Below, in pieces: positions 4,245 to 24,000 of a stretch of 24,000 nucleotides of DNA (positions are counted from its first letter, which is position 1; each line of letters opens with the position of its first letter). Below the pieces are notes generated by a model. It saw only the letters and a program-made list of their open reading frames with translations, was not told the origin of the DNA and searched no databases. The translations under genes and the position numbers were made by a program. Source of the DNA: Paenibacillus sp. YIM B09110 (GTDB lineage: Bacteria > Bacillota > Bacilli > Paenibacillales > Paenibacillaceae); the NCBI RefSeq assembly GCF_037167145.1, contig NZ_JBANSP010000002.1, forward strand, positions 276,088 through 300,087. Reading direction: 5' to 3'.

Positions 4245-4343
4245 GATTTTGGGGTGCTTTAACAAATAGATTTATAACATAAATACATATAACAATATTA
4301 TATCTTTGCTTAGGCACAAGAATTAGGAGTGAGTGTAACAACT

Positions 4344-5615
4344 ATGAGTTTTATAAAAATTTATAATTATTTACTTGATAATGAAGCTAATCAAAAAGTA
4401 GAACAGATATACCTATATGCTATGCTCAAGGCAGATTATTCAATCTTTAATGGCTATACATCAACAACAATAACAATCCTTGCCCAAGGAAATGTATTAT
4501 CTACTACTAATACCAAAAGAAAGGTGAAACTAATAAAAGAGCTATTAGAACAATTGCAAGAAAGGAAAATCATACAGATAGATTATGAAGGCGAATTAGG
4601 AGCAAATACACCAATAATAATTAGGTTTCCTGATCTTGGAGGTCATGAGCAAATAACACCTGATATGTACTCACTGGCATCTTGCCCCGCCGAATTTTTC
4701 GTATTGGTCACAATCAAGAGATTTACCGGAGAGCCGTTCAACGGCTTTGAGAAAGCCAAAGATAGATGGTCAGATATACTTGGCTACGGTTCAAAGAACA
4801 CAGGAAACAAAATTATTAACAAGTTGGTTGAAGATAAAAAAATATACTGTGTTGAAGGAGAGAGGTACAGAGACAACAACGGATTGATTAAGCAACATTC
4901 TACCAAATGGTTTCTCAATAAACATAATCAAATAATGATTAGTGACGAAAAGAACGAAGAACTTATTTCTGTCGCCGCTGAGAATGAAGAAATAAAAGAT
5001 ATTTCCGCGACTAGTAATGCTAAAGACAAAATAACACAGAAAGAAAAGCCTAAAAAGCATAATCCTTCAGTTACAAATGCAAAATCAATTGAATGGGGGA
5101 ATTGGAACAACCTTAACCTTAGTGCATTCATTAAGGATGCTGACATTGAGTTATATGTTCTACAAATGCACATTGAAGAATTTATATCAATTGCTAACCA
5201 GAAGCTAAACAGTATTCCTGATAAAGCCAGATTCAATATTATGAATAAAATTAAGAAGTCATTGATCCAGAAGGAACGAAAAGAAAATAAGAATGCCGTT
5301 GTTATCAATGGTGAAGCTGTTTCCGTTGATAAAAGTAATATCGAGAGTTATAGGCAGTATCTGATAGATAACCTTAATTCTGGTTGTGATGGAGTTGAAG
5401 TGTTAATTTTTAACTACGGGGAAAACAAGAAAACAACGATTAGCCTAAAAAGAATGGCTGTTAGCGTTGGTTTCGAGTTTATGCTTTCAAATGAAGTCAT
5501 TGACTTCACAGTAGCTAGCTACATCAATGTCATAAAGGCAGACAAAGAATTTGATTCCTTGATATTTAACGATACCAAAGGAAGCATTCGAAACCGATTT
5601 CATATTGCTTGCTAA
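4344..5615 (+). CDS. Hypothetical protein; possible replication initiator or replisome-organiser-like protein
   Basis: Long ORF directly downstream of the repeat array. The N-terminus FIKIYNYLLDNEANQKVEQIYLYAMLK resembles the RepA_N / phage replisome-organiser N-terminal pattern, though weakly. The start is uncertain (GTG 4329 sits inside the RBS, so ATG 4344 is preferred). Confidence 0.45.
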   Translation: MSFIKIYNYLLDNEANQKVEQIYLYAMLKADYSIFNGYTSTTITILAQGNVLSTTNTKRKVKLIKELLEQLQERKIIQIDYEGELGANTPIIIRFPDLGGHEQITPDMYSLASCPAEFFVLVTIKRFTGEPFNGFEKAKDRWSDILGYGSKNTGNKIINKLVEDKKIYCVEGERYRDNNGLIKQHSTKWFLNKHNQIMISDEKNEELISVAAENEEIKDISATSNAKDKITQKEKPKKHNPSVTNAKSIEWGNWNNLNLSAFIKDADIELYVLQMHIEEFISIANQKLNSIPDKARFNIMNKIKKSLIQKERKENKNAVVINGEAVSVDKSNIESYRQYLIDNLNSGCDGVEVLIFNYGENKKTTISLKRMAVSVGFEFMLSNEVIDFTVASYINVIKADKEFDSLIFNDTKGSIRNRFHIAC

Positions 5616-5798
5616 TCGATTCGTCCCGATACATTTACTGTTAGTTGCTGATGTAGTAAGAATTTGAGAAGTTTTGTCGTCCTCATGATTGTAAATGACG
5701 GACGGCGAATGTGGATTAGAATATGATTATTTTACGCTTTATTGTGATAAAGAATTATTTAATGTTGCGCTGATACTAAAATAAAAAAGGTGAAAAAA

Positions 5799-6344
5799 AT
5801 GAATGAAATTTGGAGAGAAGTAGTTGGTTATCAGGGATACTATGAAGTATCAAATCTAGGGGATGTTAGAAGTTTAGACAGGATTGTTTATAAAGAACAA
5901 AATGGAAAGGTTGTGGGAACGCCAGTAAAGGGAAGAATGTTAAAGACAGGTATATGTAATAGAGGATATTCAAGGTTACGACTAAGCAAAGATGGGAAGT
6001 CAACTACATACCGAGTTCATAGGCTTGTGGCTGCCGCCTTTATCGATAATCCTGATAATAAATCAGAAGTTAATCATATAGATGGCAATAAGCTCAATAA
6101 CGCGATCTGGAATCTTGAATACTGCACAAAAATGGAAAATGTTCAACATGCTTGGGAAATTGGATTGGTGAATACTTGCACAATAAAAATTAGCTATGAT
6201 GATTTGTTGTTTATATTAGGACATTATGAGTTCGGGAGTAGAGAATACGGGACTTGTGCATTGGCAAGGAAATTTGGTGTAAACCCTACTACCATTTGGG
6301 GTATTGTTAATGGCAAAAGAGATGTGAACCATTATGTAAGTTAA
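5799..6344 (+). CDS. HNH homing endonuclease (NUMOD4 + HNH_3 + C-terminal HTH)
   Basis: The N-terminus MNEIWREVVGYQGYYEVSNLGDVRS is a NUMOD4 motif. VHRLVAAAFIDNPDNKSEVNHIDGNKLNNAIWNLEYCTKMENVQHA is an HNH_3 motif. ARKFGVNPTTIWGIVNGKR is an HTH. ATG 5799 follows AAAGGTGA. Confidence 0.85.
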   Translation: MNEIWREVVGYQGYYEVSNLGDVRSLDRIVYKEQNGKVVGTPVKGRMLKTGICNRGYSRLRLSKDGKSTTYRVHRLVAAAFIDNPDNKSEVNHIDGNKLNNAIWNLEYCTKMENVQHAWEIGLVNTCTIKISYDDLLFILGHYEFGSREYGTCALARKFGVNPTTIWGIVNGKRDVNHYVS

Positions 6345-6686: not shown

Positions 6687-7019
6687 ATGGATAATTATAA
6701 AATTGCTTATGGTACAGAAAGAATAAAGCCAATATTGAGTAGTAAAGACCTAGATAAACTTATTGCTGAGTCACTAAAAGAAGAGCCATCTAAGCTTGCT
6801 AAAACGGTTTCTGAGCCACAGAATAAGCCAAAGCATAAGCCGGCTAGAGAGCCAGTTACAACGCCAATTAATAAGCTTACAGACGCTTTCAAACACTTGA
6901 AAACAAAAACAATTAAAACAACAACTCAGGATGCATCAGAAGCTTTCGCTCACTTGAGACCAAAGGTCAATAAATTAATAGAAACCGAACCATTCGCCCA
7001 TATACGAGGAGGTAAATAA
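6687..7019 (+). CDS. Hypothetical protein with three internal x-F-x-H-[LI] repeats
   Basis: GAAAGGAA RBS and ATG at 6687. The product is Lys/Pro/Thr-rich. The repeats are DAFKHLK, EAFAHLR and EPFAHIR. Confidence 0.5.
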   Translation: MDNYKIAYGTERIKPILSSKDLDKLIAESLKEEPSKLAKTVSEPQNKPKHKPAREPVTTPINKLTDAFKHLKTKTIKTTTQDASEAFAHLRPKVNKLIETEPFAHIRGGK

Positions 7020-7023
7020 GTCA

Positions 7024-7407
7024 ATGGAGAAAGTGAAGGTATTAAGTAGCTACATCATGGAGGGCTATACGCTGTTCAAAGTGAAGCCATTAGGATTAAT
7101 TGAGTATGGCATTAAGAAGGATATATATTGTTTTGATTATGCTTCTTTGGCTGATCAATGGGGAATTAGTATGGAAGTACTTGATAAGGTTGCTTCGTAT
7201 GACATAACATTTAGTGATTCTATGTATGTATCATTTAATGAAACGGAGTCAGGGTTAGTTAGAACATATATGATGAATGCCAACGCAACTCCAAATTTAT
7301 TAAGAAAATTGAAGGATTCAACTTTTAAACCTAATAGGGATATTATTAGAGAATTTGCTGTAATAGCAATGCTAGTTGATAAAGCAAGGGGGTATAAAAA
7401 TGGTTAA
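7024..7407 (+). CDS. Hypothetical protein
   Basis: GAGGAGG at 7006-7012 and ATG at 7024. It begins 4 nt after the previous stop and overlaps the next gene by 8 nt (ATGGTTAA). No motif recognised. Confidence 0.55.
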   Translation: MEKVKVLSSYIMEGYTLFKVKPLGLIEYGIKKDIYCFDYASLADQWGISMEVLDKVASYDITFSDSMYVSFNETESGLVRTYMMNANATPNLLRKLKDSTFKPNRDIIREFAVIAMLVDKARGYKNG

Positions 7408-7648: not shown

Positions 7649-8605
7649 TTATGTTGTTTTATAATAGGGGTTTTTCTCAACTATAGCTGATTGAATTTTC
7701 GTTCTTAAAAATTCAACAAAATCATTTTCATTTTCTAAACAAGATACTATTTCATATAAGTCACATAATACAACAACTGCTTTTGCAAGTGCTCCTTTAG
7801 TCGTAGTAATCGCTGGTTCTGTAAATCCACTAACAGATATATATATCCCCCTTGCTTGACCACGAAGAAAAACACCCATAAGATGATTGGAAATTTCATT
7901 CTTCCCAACTGGTTTTCCCCACCACTTCATTTCAACTAGGTAGTAATCAGAATCTATCTTGATAACGCCGTCGATTTGTTCAATTATCCCTTCGTTTTCT
8001 TCTCCATTTATAGAGAAGGATTCTTTGACGAGAATATCATGATAATTAAACAAGTTATTTAAGACATTTTCAAATAGCTTACCTCTTTTGTGTGGGTCAT
8101 TTAACTTGACTAATTCACTTATCTCAAGCTTTATTTTTTCTAGTTCACGTTTTCGGTTGTTAACTTTTTCAACTTGTTCAAGGTATGTTTGTTTATGTTT
8201 TCTGGCTAATTCATTTTTTTCTCTTTCCATTCTTGAAAAAGCATCTTTTACTTTGATTACTTGACGTATCTCGGCGACATACCCTTTGGCTTTTATTCTG
8301 TCATTATCCCAACAAGATTCATAACTGTCGAATTCGACTATTCTTTTTAATAATTCTCGTCGGATTTTAAGGAACATGTCATTGTTCTGTTCGTTGATTC
8401 TAGTTACCATAATCCTAGTGATTTCGTACTTACTTATGCTATCTTTGTTATTGTATACTTTTATTGAAATATCATTTAATAACGATTCACTCACACCAGC
8501 ACCGCGAAAGAATAAAAGTACATCTTGTTTAGAACGATTTAATAAAGGAATTGTATCAATTAGTAAGCTAATTAGTTCTGGAGGATAATGATAAATAGTT
8601 ATCAT
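7649..8605 (-). CDS. Mrr_cat-type PD-(D/E)xK restriction-endonuclease-like protein with an N-terminal helical/coiled-coil domain
   Basis: The C-terminal half reads KRGKLFENVLNNLF...IEQIDGVIKIDSDYYLVEMKWWGKPVGKNEI...GIYISVSGFTEPA. This fits the F-E, D and E-x-K pattern of Mrr-like nucleases. A charged coiled-coil stretch (EREKNELARKHKQTYLEQVEKVNNRKRELEKIKLEISEL) lies in the middle of the protein. ATG 8605 has an AAGGGTG RBS and is preferred over GTG 8617. Confidence 0.75.
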   Translation of the reverse strand: MITIYHYPPELISLLIDTIPLLNRSKQDVLLFFRGAGVSESLLNDISIKVYNNKDSISKYEITRIMVTRINEQNNDMFLKIRRELLKRIVEFDSYESCWDNDRIKAKGYVAEIRQVIKVKDAFSRMEREKNELARKHKQTYLEQVEKVNNRKRELEKIKLEISELVKLNDPHKRGKLFENVLNNLFNYHDILVKESFSINGEENEGIIEQIDGVIKIDSDYYLVEMKWWGKPVGKNEISNHLMGVFLRGQARGIYISVSGFTEPAITTTKGALAKAVVVLCDLYEIVSCLENENDFVEFLRTKIQSAIVEKNPYYKTT

Positions 8606-8725
8606 AGATTCAAGCACCCTTCGAAATTTAATAACACATATTCCCTATAACTAATCCTTCAAGTATACTATAATTTAGAATAAATCCCAATAGTATATGT
8701 GCTGTCATGAGGAGGATAACTTGTT

Positions 8726-10042
8726 ATGTCAATTTCTGATAAAGTAAAAAGCGGTTACTGGTCAATTTCGACACAAAAGCATTTGAAAGTCTTTAAAAGT
8801 GAAGCGACTGGCTTATCGCAATTAGGTAATCTCAATTTGACTGGGAAAGTAGGAAGATTCCTAGGTGTTATAAGAGGCAATGGACAAATAACTGATATGA
8901 ATAAGCTTGAATTAATGGCTAACAGTGTAGGCATTAATAATAAGTTGGAACTCCTTAAGATTGTACTTCCTGAGTTGGAATCAGCATCAGATAAAAGAAT
9001 TGAATTAATGAGAGATACTATAGGGAATATAACTGGTATTGCCGAATATGTCTACGATAACCCTACAGTACTAGGCATTTCAGGTCAGGTATTTGAAAAT
9101 CAACATCCAACAGATGTAGAAAGAATAGTAATAAGGACTATGGATGAAACGAAAAAGATTCCTTATGCGCAAAGCCATCTTATTCAATTACTTATCCAGC
9201 AAGGATTTAGCGAAAGAGATGTTTCATTATCAATTGCATTGCAAAATAATTTTAAGTTAATTCGAGTTTTAAATAAAATGAAGAATCGTGAACCTATTAT
9301 TAGCAATGAGTACGTCTGGGGCGATAATCATGAGAAAATTGCTATGGCTGTCTCAGGACTTAATATGTTTGAAAAAGACACTTTAAGAGAAATAATAGAT
9401 TCGATTCAAAATTTCCAAGGATTTCCTTTAGAGAAAATAGCACCTGAGGCAAGCAACTTACTCCTAATGGCCAAAAAAACTGGTATGATAAATCCTACTA
9501 CAATTGTTTCAACAAGAGGTTTTCAGAAAGATTTTGGTTTTAGTACAAACTTGTTACAACCTGAGCAATATAACAATGATATCCTTGATGATGTTAAATT
9601 GTTACTTGCTTCGATTCGTTTTGGAGAAAATTACACTCCTTATTCGACAATTAATGACCCTGAAAAATTCCTGTCAAAGTTAATTCAATATGGGGATATC
9701 GGTCCTCATGATGCAAATGCAACAGATTACACTTTGCTTGAGAAAAAGGGTATTGTAAGAGTTGTAAGAAAACAAAAGTTTAATTCCTACTATGGGACAT
9801 ATCGAACTGGTCCATGTCTTGAATTGATAAGAACAGATGTCGCAAAGGAAGCTTTAAACATTATTAAGAATCCAAACTACACAATGAACAATGATGCAGA
9901 AATTACAGACTTCGGTTCAATGATGGATGTAGGGATTTTTGTAACTCCTGAAGAAGAAAGAATGAATATGGCTGAAATGCCTGAAACTTTGAAAGAAATC
10001 GAAGAACATACTCTAAGAGTACTTAGAGGAGAAAATATATAA
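8726..10042 (+). CDS. Hypothetical 438-aa protein with no recognisable motif; first gene of a two-gene operon
   Basis: Strong GAGGAGGA RBS at 8709-8716 and ATG at 8726. The frame stays open through AT-rich DNA for 1.3 kb, and the next gene starts 16 nt after the stop. Confidence 0.7.
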   Translation: MSISDKVKSGYWSISTQKHLKVFKSEATGLSQLGNLNLTGKVGRFLGVIRGNGQITDMNKLELMANSVGINNKLELLKIVLPELESASDKRIELMRDTIGNITGIAEYVYDNPTVLGISGQVFENQHPTDVERIVIRTMDETKKIPYAQSHLIQLLIQQGFSERDVSLSIALQNNFKLIRVLNKMKNREPIISNEYVWGDNHEKIAMAVSGLNMFEKDTLREIIDSIQNFQGFPLEKIAPEASNLLLMAKKTGMINPTTIVSTRGFQKDFGFSTNLLQPEQYNNDILDDVKLLLASIRFGENYTPYSTINDPEKFLSKLIQYGDIGPHDANATDYTLLEKKGIVRVVRKQKFNSYYGTYRTGPCLELIRTDVAKEALNIIKNPNYTMNNDAEITDFGSMMDVGIFVTPEEERMNMAEMPETLKEIEEHTLRVLRGENI

Positions 10043-10058
10043 GAATGGCGGTGGAATC

Positions 10059-11510
10059 TTGTCTGATTTAAATAATAAGCCACAGTCAATTGAGAAAGAT
10101 CTAGAGAGTATGCCTCCTCAGAATGGTTTGAGTGATGGACAACAACAACAAAGTTCTGAGGGTAAAACGTCAAATGAGCCTGTAGTTCAGTCCGAACTTA
10201 ATTTAGATATAATCGATAAAGGGGAAGGTAGTTCTACAATACCTTCTCCTAATTTGCCAATTCAAGAAAGTAAACAATATCAGAGTAAATCGGTGGAGAC
10301 TTATAACAAGGGAACAAAAAAGAAGCCTCGTGCTCAAAGCTACAACAGAAAAAAACCAGTACAATCAGAAATAAATAAAAATACAACCGAAGAGAAGACT
10401 CTACAAAAGGGATATTTGTTGGAATACCGAATGAAAAGGCTATTATTTCATATGGGATATTTCCCTAAAATCGGGATAGATGTTCGTACTTCCTATGATG
10501 ATGCTTCGGATAAGATTACCGATTTAGATGTCTATGGTTTATATGTTCATCGTGATTTTACCAGTAAGTCCTTATGGGTAGATTGCAAATCTGGTTCAGT
10601 TCAAATTCATGATAGAATAACTTGGATTAAAGGCATCATGAGTGAAATAACAGTTAACGATATGATTTTTGTTGTAAATAGTGCACGTACATCAGTGAAG
10701 CAATACGCAAGGAAAGCAGGAATACAACTATTAGACATAAATATTGTTGATAAACTTGAAGCTGATTATAAAATCAATCAAGACGACTGGCGAGGTTCTT
10801 GGAATCCAGATACACAGCATAATAAAATTAACCAGTTATCTAAATTTAGTATTCCAACTAACGATTTGTATAAGAGAATTGCAAAATATATTTCATCTGA
10901 TTACTGGGTAATTGATAATTATTCCAAAGTAAAGAAGACCTTATCAGGAATTAGGGATTTATCAACCTATAACAATTTAAAACTAAACGAGGAACAAACA
11001 AAAACTATTCAATGGTCTATCTATGAATTAACTAATCTGTTCTTATTAGCCGTACTTGATATAGCAAAAGAGCTATACTATTTTAATGATAGTGAAAAAC
11101 GTGAAACGGTAGTTGAAGGATTAAGTTCGGGTGATATACCCAATAGAAAAAGGAAGGAGATTTTTGACTCGGCGTTTAGGGTAGCATATAACGTAGTTAA
11201 AACTCAAATACCTGATTTTAACATACCTTCGAAAATGCCTTCATTTAATATAACGCCACCGAATTACACTGAATCGTTTATTGATTTAATTTTAAGAATA
11301 ACAAATAATCCAATGTATTATTATGATTTATTGAGATTTTTAGACTTCATTTTTATGGAATATGACCTTCAATCAAAGGTAATTAGCGAAGCTGATGTGC
11401 GCACTCTGTTTAAAAATTATGATGAATTGTTAATTGGAGCTAAAACTTTATTGCATTTCATATGTCAAGTAACTAATATCCCTCGTTCAATGTACCGAAT
11501 TATAAACTAG
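10059..11510 (+). CDS. Hypothetical protein: low-complexity N-terminus, Mrr-like PD-(D/E)xK nuclease core and an unknown helical C-terminal half
   Basis: Residues 1-115 are Q/S/K/N-rich. Residues 118-232 read GYLLEYRMKRLLFHMGYFP...ITDLDVYGLYV...LWVDCKSG...ARKAGIQLLD. This reproduces the order of Mrr_cat elements (E, D, D-x-K, then A..GI.L.D). The start is TTG 10059 (GGTGGA RBS) and is uncertain. Confidence 0.6.
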   Translation: MSDLNNKPQSIEKDLESMPPQNGLSDGQQQQSSEGKTSNEPVVQSELNLDIIDKGEGSSTIPSPNLPIQESKQYQSKSVETYNKGTKKKPRAQSYNRKKPVQSEINKNTTEEKTLQKGYLLEYRMKRLLFHMGYFPKIGIDVRTSYDDASDKITDLDVYGLYVHRDFTSKSLWVDCKSGSVQIHDRITWIKGIMSEITVNDMIFVVNSARTSVKQYARKAGIQLLDINIVDKLEADYKINQDDWRGSWNPDTQHNKINQLSKFSIPTNDLYKRIAKYISSDYWVIDNYSKVKKTLSGIRDLSTYNNLKLNEEQTKTIQWSIYELTNLFLLAVLDIAKELYYFNDSEKRETVVEGLSSGDIPNRKRKEIFDSAFRVAYNVVKTQIPDFNIPSKMPSFNITPPNYTESFIDLILRITNNPMYYYDLLRFLDFIFMEYDLQSKVISEADVRTLFKNYDELLIGAKTLLHFICQVTNIPRSMYRIIN

Positions 11511-11554: not shown

Positions 11555-11590
11555 TCACTACTTTGCTAAATGCGAAGTAGTGATATTTTT
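11555..11590 (+). terminator. Rho-independent terminator after the two-gene operon
   Basis: Stem tcactactt (11555-11563) pairs with aagtagtga (11575-11583), followed by tattttta. Confidence 0.55.
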
Positions 11591-11604
11591 ATGGAGGGGT
11601 AACT

Positions 11605-11814
11605 TTGCTGAGAAAACCGATTAAGTCTGACTCGGAAATAGAAGTGTGTGTTCAGTTGCAAAGTACTGTGCGGATATGGATGAACAACGAGGTAGAGGAT
11701 GTTGGAGTTATTGAAAAATATGATAATGACACAATACAAATCAATGGTGATTACTATATTCGAAACAATTGCGTGATAGAAGTTATTAATCAGAACTTTG
11801 TATTAATAAAATAA
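11605..11814 (+). CDS. Small hypothetical protein (69 aa)
   Basis: GGAGGGG at 11593-11599 lies 5 nt upstream of TTG 11605. The gene is immediately upstream of the KAP NTPase gene. No motif recognised. Confidence 0.5.
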   Translation: MLRKPIKSDSEIEVCVQLQSTVRIWMNNEVEDVGVIEKYDNDTIQINGDYYIRNNCVIEVINQNFVLIK

Positions 11815-11885
11815 CTTTCGACGTATTTAAAAATCAAATATTGAGTCATTGTTGTATGAATACTTTATGTGAAAGGAAGAGAATA

Positions 11886-13910
11886 GTGACCGGACAATCA
11901 GATTCGAAGTTTCTTCTAGAGAGCGTACTAGAATATGTTAAAAATGAAAGAGCCAACTATGGATTAATGATAAATGGTGAGTGGGGAAGTGGTAAGACAT
12001 ACTTCTGGGACAATGTACTTAGTCCAAAAATTGAAAGTATTAATGGAAAACCACTAAAGACTGTATATGTATCACTGTATGGAGTTTCTACTACTGAGGA
12101 GATAAGCAAAAGGATTTGCTATGAAGTTTACGCATCTGCACTGAAAAAAAAAGGACATTTAAAAAAACTAATTGATAGTAAGGTAGGCAATGCACTTCCT
12201 GAATTGAGTAAGGTAATTTTGAACTTTGGTGGTAAACAAATGGGTATCGATCCTATTGGAAGTTCAAGTATTGACTGGGATAAATTATACTCGCTCAAAA
12301 ATAAAGTGTTATGTTTTGATGATTTGGAAAGAGCTAACCTAGAGGTTTCGGAAATACTAGGGTACATAAATAATTTTGTTGAACATGACGGTGTTAAAAC
12401 AATTATTATTTGTAATGAAAAAGAAGTTAATTCTAAAGTGTACTCTGAGAATAACGAGTTAAAAAAACTTACTGCAACATACTTATTAAATATTGAGGGA
12501 AAGTTAGGTGAAAAAGAAGATACAAAATCAAGACAATCAGAATTAAAGCAATCTACAAATCAAATAATTGATGATACTATTCAGATGCTTTTTAGTAAAA
12601 GTAATGATTATAAGCATATAAAAGAGAAGCTTATTGGAAAAACGTTATTATATTCTTCAAATGAGAATGATATTATTAACAATATAATTTCTATTAATGA
12701 ACATTACAAATCATATGATTATATTCTAACAGGTAGCGATATCATTATTGAAATCTTTCAAAAAAGTAAGACTAAGAATTTTAGGATTTTAATTCAGGCA
12801 ATTGATGATTTTGAAAGGATATTTCAGAAATTGAAATCTGATTATCCTGTTATTGATCAAGGAATAGTGAAGTCAATATTTATTTTCACATTAATTTTGT
12901 CCTTTGAAATAAAGTCAGGAAAGTTACCCAATAAAGAATTGTTGGAAATTAATTCAGATCTAGATTTTCAACAGCGTATTATTATGGACAAGATGGATAA
13001 AAAGTCATCATATATCACTAGCTTACTTTCAACGTATCGTGGAGTACATACTGAATCTGGCATAGTGTTTTTTCAGTTTGTTAAGGAGTTAGTTGTAGAT
13101 GGTATTCTTAATACAGAATTTTTTAAAGTTGAAATCGACAAACAAGTTAAAGATAAAGAAAGAAAAGAAGTTCCTGGTTATGTGAAAATAATTAAACAAG
13201 GATACTGGGAGTTAACAAATGATGATTTTAACGTTGCAGTTGCCGATTCATATGAAGCAATAAAAAGTGGTAAGATGAGTATTAGATTTTACTTTTCAGG
13301 TTTTATTGTATTTTTGAAGTTGATGGAACTTGAACTTATAAATGAAGATATAACTTCATTAAAGGAGTTATTTATAAATGGATTAGAGAAGATAGTAGAA
13401 AAGGCCAATATAGAAGATATCGAAACCTCATTCACTCGATTTGGAAAACCAACAAATTATGAGGATGACATTAACGAGATAAAACAGAAAATTATTGAAA
13501 CTAGAAAAAAATTGGAAGTTAAAGAAGATGAGCATATTGCTAATGAATTATTAGAGTCTTTAAAGAATAACATTCAAGAGTATTACTTTGCTGTTGACAG
13601 AAAGCATTGGAACAAACCATTATTTGAGCATTTGGACATGAATGACGTGGCTAGAATCATTTTAATTAAAAGTAATAAGGACATAAACTTATTTGCTAAT
13701 ATTCTATTCGAGCATTATAAGGAAATGAGTGAAGCTCTAAAGCCTGATCTACCTAAATTAGACGAACTTCAAGCAATATTAATAAATCACGTAAGCGAGG
13801 AGCTGGCACAAAATCGAAATTCCTTAACAGTCGCAAACCTTAAGGAAATCGTTGAAGTCATTAGTATCATTAAGACTGCAAATGCAGATTCAGAAACTCC
13901 AAATCCATAA
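11886..13910 (+). CDS. KAP-family P-loop NTPase (soluble form with no membrane insertion)
   Basis: Walker A is GLMINGEWGSGKTYFW (nt 11976-11999). Walker B is VLCFDDLER (nt 12306-12332), followed by TIIICNEKE. These match the KAP signatures G-x-W-G-S-G-K-T and hhhhDDLDR. The start is uncertain: GTG 11886 follows the GAAAGGAAGAG RBS, and ATG 11856 or TTG 11841 are alternatives. Confidence 0.85.
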   Translation: MTGQSDSKFLLESVLEYVKNERANYGLMINGEWGSGKTYFWDNVLSPKIESINGKPLKTVYVSLYGVSTTEEISKRICYEVYASALKKKGHLKKLIDSKVGNALPELSKVILNFGGKQMGIDPIGSSSIDWDKLYSLKNKVLCFDDLERANLEVSEILGYINNFVEHDGVKTIIICNEKEVNSKVYSENNELKKLTATYLLNIEGKLGEKEDTKSRQSELKQSTNQIIDDTIQMLFSKSNDYKHIKEKLIGKTLLYSSNENDIINNIISINEHYKSYDYILTGSDIIIEIFQKSKTKNFRILIQAIDDFERIFQKLKSDYPVIDQGIVKSIFIFTLILSFEIKSGKLPNKELLEINSDLDFQQRIIMDKMDKKSSYITSLLSTYRGVHTESGIVFFQFVKELVVDGILNTEFFKVEIDKQVKDKERKEVPGYVKIIKQGYWELTNDDFNVAVADSYEAIKSGKMSIRFYFSGFIVFLKLMELELINEDITSLKELFINGLEKIVEKANIEDIETSFTRFGKPTNYEDDINEIKQKIIETRKKLEVKEDEHIANELLESLKNNIQEYYFAVDRKHWNKPLFEHLDMNDVARIILIKSNKDINLFANILFEHYKEMSEALKPDLPKLDELQAILINHVSEELAQNRNSLTVANLKEIVEVISIIKTANADSETPNP

Positions 13911-14265
13911 TCATAAGTGTGAAGTTAATCGTGATATTCTACTAACTTTTGATCAGTATCTTTATAGATAATTAAAGGATTCTTAATGAATAGAGAAATG
14001 GTTTGAAATTTCCATTATATATATATGAATGTGCGTAAGTCACTTTTGAAGTAGTCTGCATGATTTAGGTGAAATACCCCCTACCACTTACCACAGAAAC
14101 AACACAAAGACTTGAATTTATTGATTTTCGTATGTTAGAATAAGCATTATTTACTTTGCAGGATTGATTTATTTTCTATTGAGAATTAGATTAAGTCCTG
14201 TTAAGCTTAAGTAATTCAGATTCTGCAAAGTATTGATTTTATTGGGTTTATACGTGAATTAGGAT

Positions 14266-14333
14266 CGCACAGGACTTAAAATCCTGCGGTGGGTGACCAC
14301 CGTACGGGTTCGATTCCCGTCCTCGGCATCCTT
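14266..14333. repeat. attR: 68-bp direct repeat, a 3' fragment of tRNA-Leu(TAA) lacking its 5' third
   Basis: Identical to 1136-1203. The upstream sequence (aggat) differs from the tRNA 5' part, so no complete tRNA exists here. Confidence 0.9.

Positions 14334-21908: not shown

Positions 21909-24000
<2,092 letters not shown>

Follow-up and report, generated by a model that had tools for sequence, protein, structure and literature searches.

A 24,000-nt stretch of DNA from Paenibacillus sp. YIM B09110 (contig NZ_JBANSP010000002.1, positions 276,088 to 300,087 of the forward strand; here called the window) carries two adjacent genes, A and B, that raise a simple question: what do two closely coupled genes do together when neither belongs to any named family? 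An earlier reading of the sequence, referred to here as the original prediction, had proposed that B is an effector nuclease, that A is its dedicated sensor or regulator, and that the pair may be the novel part of the region. We found that A and B are a genuine two-gene module, strictly conserved and not annotated to date. B is predicted to contain a PD-(D/E)xK nuclease core, and A is modeled as a chain of winged-helix units. On balance, we lean toward the view that the pair is a self-contained nuclease defense module that is free of nucleoside triphosphatases (NTPases), acts against phages or rival mobile DNA, travels as mobile-element cargo, and consists of a nuclease, B, that A restrains or gates. 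We favor this view because of the conserved active site, the strictly coupled winged-helix partner, the operon, the cargo status, and the frequent defense neighbors.

A gene pair conserved as a unit

The two genes and their expression signals are as follows, with positions numbered within the window.

8710-8715, plus strand: Shine-Dalgarno sequence AGGAGG of gene A, 10 nt before the ATG, read from the sequence
8726-10042, plus strand: gene A, ATG start, 438 amino acids (aa), from the open reading frame (ORF) call
10050-10061, plus strand: weak GGTGG ribosome site and TTG start of gene B, read from the sequence
10059-11510, plus strand: gene B, TTG start, 483 aa, from the ORF call
11555-11591, plus strand: intrinsic terminator closing the A-B operon, from its stem, T-run, and folding energy

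Most of the original prediction for this locus held up. We confirmed from the sequence the two ORFs, the 16-nt spacing between them (the TAA of A is at 10040-10042 and the TTG of B is at 10059), and the ribosome-binding site upstream of A. The hairpin terminator proposed after B has a 12-bp stem at 11555-11583, then TATTTTTA, and its folding energy of -20.1 kcal/mol (z = -4.96) was equaled by none of 200 shuffles. A strong ribosome-binding site and a promoter had been proposed upstream of A; the AGGAGG sequence bears out the former and the latter was not borne out. A consensus scan called no plus-strand sigma-70 site in the 108-nt intergenic region (8617-8726), and promoter-like sites were at chance level in the AT-rich region around the pair. 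The TTG start and weak GGTGG site of B suggest that its translation is coupled to that of A, and positions 10050-10061 are the likely point of this coupling.

In the NCBI annotation of Paenibacillus sp. YIM B09110, proteins 100% identical to those encoded by A and B are listed as hypothetical (P0121 and P0001). Each ORF has hundreds of homologs under clear purifying selection, and therefore A and B are real genes and not chance ORFs. We scanned both proteins against Pfam, NCBIfam, PADLOC-DB 2.0, and PHROGs and found no match to either at a cutoff of E ≤ 0.1. Profile hidden Markov model (HMM) searches of PDB sequences returned only chance-level matches. Neither family is present in any of these collections, a point on which the original prediction was supported. 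An exhaustive profile search placed B in an unannotated superfamily of 685 clusters at 50% identity (E ≤ 1e-3). When we compared 57 distant members with Pfam, PADLOC, and NCBIfam, we obtained single marginal matches only, three of them from PADLOC (E of about 0.005 to 0.009). Homologs of A fall into 243 to 250 clusters, all annotated as hypothetical and without a Pfam domain. An index-based profile search with A returned this same tight family and no distant A; distant homologs of A were found through the neighbors of distant B homologs and by tblastn on plasmids. We found accessions of A-B homologs neither in the searchable literature nor in the supplement of the paper on the GAPS4 defense system (bioRxiv 10.1101/2025.09.07.674715).

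The original prediction had named the adjacency of homologs in other genomes as a check on the pair. We found A directly upstream of B in 24 of 24 assessable loci, down to about 20% identity. For the close loci, we drew on species-representative genomes and on contigs that encode a B homolog; with loci truncated by a contig end set aside, A was immediately 5' of B on the same strand in every case (18/18). Distant metagenomic relatives of B (about 20 to 27% identity) had A directly upstream in all four cases that we looked up. These four upstream genes encode proteins of 417 to 446 aa, overlap B or lie at most 8 nt from it, and are clear A homologs (hmmsearch E from 1e-89 to 3e-26). The same order was found on all three plasmids examined, from C. 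perfringens, V. parahaemolyticus, and Streptomyces anulatus. The gap between the genes was at most 22 nt, or the genes overlapped, in 23 of the 24 loci; the exception, with a gap of 60 nt, is a locus (L018) in which the start of B comes from a mechanical, uncurated ORF call.

We also found that A and B diverge together. Pairwise identities of A and of B over the 24 pairs correlated with an r of 0.97, a value reached by none of 2000 Mantel permutations. The GC content of these pairs ranges from 0.24 to 0.66, and their hosts belong to the Bacillota, Actinomycetota, and Pseudomonadota (Vibrio). The pair is rare and patchy, with 16 loci of the close clade in 185,579 species genomes. By these sequence comparisons, A and B are co-transcribed genes that overlap or lie close together, always occur as a pair, and diverge in step. 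The strict adjacency and the correlated divergence across phyla indicate that the module is old and that its two genes have been passed on together with no exchange of partners; it occurs in at least three phyla.

Two assemblies contain a disrupted A beside an intact B. In a gut metagenome contig (L006), A is frameshifted by a poly-A difference (A7/A8) at 6855-6862 relative to two related loci (L007 and L008). In a metagenome-assembled genome (L021), A contains an in-frame TAG at 4979-4984. Either disruption may reflect an error in sequencing, gene decay, or phase variation of A.

Predicted structures of the two proteins

We modeled B with AlphaFold2 using 54 homologs. Residues 117-483 were modeled confidently, with a predicted local distance difference test (pLDDT) score mostly above 90, and residues 1-109 were disordered (pLDDT < 50), much as had been proposed for the first ~115 residues. 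The parts of B are as follows.

10059-10394, plus strand: aa 1-112, disordered low-complexity tail rich in S, K, Q, E, and N (pLDDT)
10407-10763, plus strand: aa 117-235, PD-(D/E)xK nuclease core (AlphaFold2 model, Foldseek, conservation)
10422-10424: catalytic codon of E122
10521-10523: catalytic codon of D155
10527-10529: catalytic codon of D157
10581-10583: catalytic codon of D175
10587-10589: catalytic codon of K177
10764-11510, plus strand: aa 236-483, all-helical domain, and the stop codon (AlphaFold2 model)

Residues 117-226 are modeled with an alpha-beta-beta-beta-alpha-beta-alpha-beta topology at a pLDDT of >90, with helices at 117-131 and 183-194 and strands at 135-143, 152-163, 169-176, and 201-206. 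The first helix carries E122, strand 2 carries D155 and D157, and strand 3 ends with D175-C-K177. Structure prediction was the second check that the original prediction had named, and in our model the region takes a PD-(D/E)xK fold with an intact catalytic constellation. Neither of the two checks contradicted the original prediction. The residue numbers that had been given for E122, D155, D157, D175, and K177 are correct, and the ARKAGIQLLD segment lies at 217-226.

We compared the core with the PDB using Foldseek. The best match was the nuclease domain of Card1 (6xl1; probability 1.0, E = 0.02), and further neighbors were EndoMS (5gke), NucS (2vld), Cap4, SfsA, and Ecl18kI. All of the meaningful matches are PD-(D/E)xK enzymes, and several, such as Card1 and Cap4, are immune effectors. 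D157, D175, and K177 are invariant among the 54 close homologs. Among the 57 distant relatives, D157 never varies, conservation of D155 and K177 is at least 90%, and E predominates at position 175; the [D/E]175-x-K177 motif is retained across the superfamily. As modeled, the core of B is a PD-(D/E)xK fold with a complete acidic/lysine active site, and B is predicted to have metal-dependent nuclease activity.

The original prediction had likened this region to Mrr_cat by the order of its elements. The fold class and the E...D...(D/E)xK order stand, and assignment to the family (PF04471) is rejected: B has no Pfam match at E ≤ 0.1, and the B profile aligned with a genuine Mrr_cat protein encoded in the window (7649-8617) at an hhalign probability of 0.4%. 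A Pfam Mrr_cat match touched 1 of the 57 distant B relatives (E = 1.1e-3).

The ~250-residue remainder of B had been said to resemble nothing recognizable, and it found no counterpart in the family libraries or in the PDB, by Foldseek or by HMM. This helical domain is modeled at a pLDDT of >85 and has conserved residues W244, W283, K292, P401, Y403, R413, P418, and R426. It accompanies the nuclease core throughout the superfamily, with distant members aligning across both. Its divergence outpaces that of both the core and A, with a mean pairwise identity of 46%, compared with 57% for the core and 58% for A.

The N-terminal tail of B is not conserved and varies in length from 0 to 193 aa across the 54 homologs. 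Over the family, it is composed of 16% K, 12% N, 11% S, and 10% E, and it turns basic beside the core (mean charge of +3.9 over its last 40 residues). The core itself has an isoelectric point (pI) of 8.4. Four distant B relatives (P0300, P0339, P0365, and P0384) do not have the N-terminal low-complexity tail and instead have C-terminal extensions of 100 to 200 aa, some of them low complexity. A disordered extension, whether N- or C-terminal, seems to recur among proteins of the B superfamily.

The AlphaFold2 model of A has a mean pLDDT of 78 and the following parts, all encoded on the plus strand within 8726-10042.

aa 1-52: N-terminal basic helix pair
aa ~53-125: winged-helix unit 1
aa ~126-210: winged-helix unit 2
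aa ~211-275: winged-helix unit 3
aa ~284-384: winged-helix unit 4
aa 385-417: disordered linker
aa 420-433: conserved acidic C-terminal helix, followed by invariant R434 and E436

Each of the four consecutive units is modeled as helix-helix-helix-strand-strand. The original prediction had called A motif-less, which is right for its sequence, with no library match, and wrong in three dimensions, where the model has four winged-helix units and an acidic tail. The best PDB matches of A by Foldseek were RPC62/RPC82, RPC39, ScpB, Nse1/Nse3, ESCRT-II, and SelB (E = 4e-3 or weaker), all of which are multi-winged-helix proteins. Comparison with viral structures gave only generic winged-helix and helix-turn-helix matches. 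We conclude from the model that A consists of four winged-helix units and is non-enzymatic. It is acidic, with a pI of 5.5 and a mean net charge of -6.6 over the last 54 residues. This charge pattern would fit scaffolding or protein sensing at least as well as it fits DNA reading.

An acidic partner encoded before a basic nuclease also bears on the possibility that the pair is an addiction module of the toxin-antitoxin type, which would stabilize its plasmid, prophage, or island, with B as a DNase toxin and A as an unusually large protein antitoxin. The strictly coupled bicistron, with the putative neutralizer first and apparent translational coupling, is consistent with this, as are the location of the pair on plasmids and integrative elements and an acidic tail that could block a nuclease. 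However, a highly conserved 438-aa, four-domain antitoxin would be atypical, and A evolves no faster than the "toxin" B. In addition, the two assemblies with a disrupted A retain an intact B (sequencing error is possible there), and frequent defense island neighbors favor immunity. We consider an addiction module quite improbable. Many toxin-antitoxin pairs are defense systems, and this explanation therefore overlaps with the defense reading.

Mobile carriers and neighboring genes

In the window, A and B lie in a low-GC stretch (~0.33 GC, compared with ~0.48 in the flanks) on a 13.1-kb integrative element inserted at a tRNA-Leu gene and bounded by a 68-bp repeat. The features of this island are as follows.

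1112-1201: tRNA-Leu(taa)
1136-1203 and 14266-14333: perfect 68-bp direct repeat, attL and attR of the island, duplicating the 3' part of tRNA-Leu(taa)
1359-2312: tyrosine integrase adjoining attL
4329-5615, plus strand: 428-aa family-less protein
5790-6344, plus strand: HNH/NUMOD4 homing-endonuclease-like protein
7024-7407, plus strand: 127-aa protein
7649-8617, minus strand, divergent from A: 322-aa protein with a helical or coiled N-terminal half and a C-terminal Mrr_cat domain (Pfam E = 3.5e-7)
11605-13910, plus strand: 69-aa ORF, then a 689-aa KAP-family P-loop NTPase
14254-14320: partial tRNA copy (Rfam)

The island also encodes an XRE-like regulator and several family-less genes. The 428-aa, HNH/NUMOD4, and 127-aa proteins are backbone genes that have counterparts of 41 to 51% identity in a sister element (L016, Paenibacillus cymbidii), and the 428-aa protein may have a replication or primase function for the island. 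Two tRNA-Met genes lie just upstream of tRNA-Leu and attL, and the GC content at the right edge of the window (23001-24000) is 0.63 against a background of 0.48. The A-B pair occupies the far, variable cargo end of the island, together with the Mrr_cat endonuclease, the 69-aa ORF, and the KAP NTPase. The NTPase matches the PADLOC candidate PDC-S49 (E = 1e-81) and phrog_4740 and is a putative third defense gene at this end. We rejected it as a component of the module, since a terminator separates it from B and it is absent from all of the other loci.

Elsewhere, the settings of the pair are likewise always variable and mobile: it is carried by the sister island in P. cymbidii, by mobilizable or conjugative plasmids, and by small elements with serine or tyrosine recombinases. 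In one prophage (L033), it lies between a Holliday junction resolvase/replication module and a late sigma factor plus terminase. At another locus (L013), its neighbor is a TnsB-like transposase. These last two settings count in favor of a role for the pair in mobile-element DNA processing, such as recombination, resolution of replication intermediates, or excision and transfer, with B as a structure-specific nuclease and A as a DNA-loading or scaffold factor. PD-(D/E)xK nucleases include resolvases, NucS/EndoMS, and TnsA, and EndoMS/NucS are among the best structural matches of B; tandem winged-helix proteins also include replication initiators. However, we found no conserved linkage to replication, partition, transposase, or conjugation genes, and the flanks vary. 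Related elements exist without A-B, and in the window the pair is at the variable cargo end of its island. Of the explanations that we weighed, we give a DNA-processing role the least credence.

The flanking genes differ in almost every A-B locus, and many of them belong to defense systems. We found Hachiman adjacent to the pair in three loci (L001, L020, and L021) and Lamassu in two (L009 and L018); L018 also has an adjacent 2186-aa methyltransferase/helicase fusion with weak matches to DrmD and mad2. A type I restriction enzyme and PDC-M26A lie beside the pair in L011, and AIPR lies beside it in L028. By a raw count with no background correction, known systems or Mrr-like genes flank the pair in about 10 of 24 loci.

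In 5 of 18 loci, an Mrr-like endonuclease gene immediately flanks the pair, in three arrangements that differ in position or orientation. It is absent from most A-B loci, and its family is common on plasmids without A, including Gram-negative plasmids. We therefore rejected the Mrr_cat protein as a third component; it probably acts on its own, as a Type IV-like restriction enzyme encoded by one gene.

This repeated adjacency to Mrr_cat endonuclease and restriction-modification genes is one reason to consider that A and B are themselves a two-subunit restriction enzyme, Type IV or another kind that has no methyltransferase. In such an enzyme, A would read modified or foreign DNA and B would cleave it, with no abortive infection and no inhibition step. 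A winged helix combined with PD-(D/E)xK is the Mrr-type layout of Type IV enzymes, and A and B together have this combination. The pair also contains no methyltransferase and is carried by mobile elements. Against this, A is acidic overall with no basic winged-helix unit, its structural neighbors are mostly protein-scaffolding proteins (RPC62, ScpB, Nse, and ESCRT-II), Pfam finds no SRA, YTH, EVE, or ASCH modification reader domain in it, and B is not detectably Mrr_cat. We regard a two-subunit restriction enzyme as unlikely.

Proposed gating of the nuclease and comparison with known systems

Our favored explanation is that A and B are a defense module, and we infer that A is the sensor or regulator and B the effector. 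According to this model, A and B would form a complex, with the fast-evolving helical domain of B as the probable interface, and A would hold the nuclease off in uninfected cells. A candidate means of doing so is the conserved acidic tail of A on its flexible linker, which could mimic DNA and occupy, as a pseudosubstrate, the basic face of the nuclease or the basic tail of B. An infection cue (a phage protein, an abnormal DNA structure, or a DNA end) would be sensed by A, and B would then be released or directed. Released B would cut DNA, either that of the invader only or that of the host too, in which case infection would be abortive. The charge complementarity between A (pI and tail charge) and B (the core and its adjoining basic tail segment) counts in favor of this model.

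Several observations weigh against it. No PADLOC defense model matches A or B (0 families each), and the defense call is drawn from context alone; many loci have no recognizable defense neighbor. We did not find the pair in 50,697 sequenced phage genomes. The Foldseek E values are weak, at best 0.02 for B and 4e-3 for A. None of the four winged-helix units of A is strongly basic, which makes direct DNA sensing by A doubtful. Finally, if the disrupted A genes beside intact B in L006 and L021 are real, B is not lethal without A, and this weakens the step in which A restrains B.

A bolder form of the model is possible, though we hold it to be doubtful. In this form, the pair would found an ancient, unrecognized defense system of the Bacillota, Actinomycetota, and Pseudomonadota in which a four-winged-helix protein gates a PD-(D/E)xK/helical DNase without an NTPase or second messenger. 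The acidic tail of A would be a tethered, DNA-mimicking pseudosubstrate countered by the variable basic tails of B, which would be a new regulatory principle. More generally, if a defense role is confirmed, the pair adds a compact, NTPase-free, two-gene immune module whose families are both blank in Pfam, NCBIfam, PADLOC, and the PDB. It would explain "hypothetical" cargo on plasmids (C. perfringens pJIR3844 type and V. parahaemolyticus), prophages, and tRNA-integrated islands, and it would supply annotation pipelines with two new signature models. It would also offer a tractable example of how a partner with a purely structural role can restrain a nuclease and then let it go, a question that several recently found nuclease-based systems raise as well.

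How close is this to what is known? The best architectural likeness to A is found in RPC62/RPC82, ScpB, Nse1/Nse3, and ESCRT-II, which also have consecutive winged-helix units. The comparison with RPC62/RPC82-type scaffolds gives template modeling (TM) scores of ~0.15 to 0.2 and E values of 4e-3 or worse, with no sequence similarity, and the likeness is one of fold class and not of family or function.

Mrr resembles the pair in its PD-(D/E)xK core, the E...D...(D/E)xK order, the winged-helix modules, and the lack of a methyltransferase. The difference is that the winged-helix part of A-B is a separate 438-aa protein, whereas in Mrr it is an N-terminal domain.

Hachiman consists of the DUF1837 nuclease HamA and the helicase HamB, and Lamassu consists of the Cap4-type nuclease LmuA and the SMC-like LmuB/C. 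The proposed logic of A-B is shared with both: a PD-(D/E)xK effector is checked by a larger partner and released upon infection. Cap4 is also among the structural neighbors of B. In contrast, Hachiman and Lamassu need a helicase or an SMC ATPase, and A-B lacks both of these and any further NTPase. In PADLOC scans of B and its 57 distant relatives, B was matched by neither a HamA nor an LmuA model.

Membership of B in Shedu was rejected, since B has no DUF4263 or SduA match in Pfam or PADLOC at E ≤ 0.1; neither was among the matches listed for the 57 distant relatives. The order of domains also differs, with the Shedu nuclease C-terminal to its sensor domain and the B nuclease N-terminal to the helical domain. 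In the two-component KELShedu, the partner, KELA, is a 12.6-kDa WYL-like protein, whereas A is a 50-kDa four-winged-helix protein. As for B, the closest solved structures to the KELShedu nuclease are Card1 and EndoMS (bioRxiv 10.1101/2025.09.13.674623).

GAPS4 pairs a PD-(D/E)xK DNase with a non-enzymatic partner, and DNA breaks trigger the a2b2 complex that the two form (bioRxiv 10.1101/2025.09.07.674715). Like A-B, it is a two-gene, NTPase-free system with a divergent PD-(D/E)xK DNase, which in GAPS4 needs the non-enzymatic partner. We compared the B profiles and the A profile with 10 GAPS4a sequences from the supplement of that paper and rejected identity with GAPS4, as all hhalign probabilities were below 1%. 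In GAPS4 the nuclease gene comes first, and its product, GAPS4a, is ~300 aa long with the motif HGxD-SxK; in A-B the nuclease gene comes second, and B shows TDxD...[D/E]CK and has a 250-aa helical domain in addition. The GAPS4 partner, GAPS4b, is ring-forming.

Precedents for NTPase-free, two-component PD-(D/E)xK defense complexes exist in GAPS4 (bioRxiv 10.1101/2025.09.07.674715) and KELShedu (bioRxiv 10.1101/2025.09.13.674623). GAPS4 and two-component KELShedu are the closest known systems to A-B in its proposed working principle. We conclude that the A-B module is familiar in kind, as a nuclease effector with a partner on mobile DNA, and new in its families and architecture.

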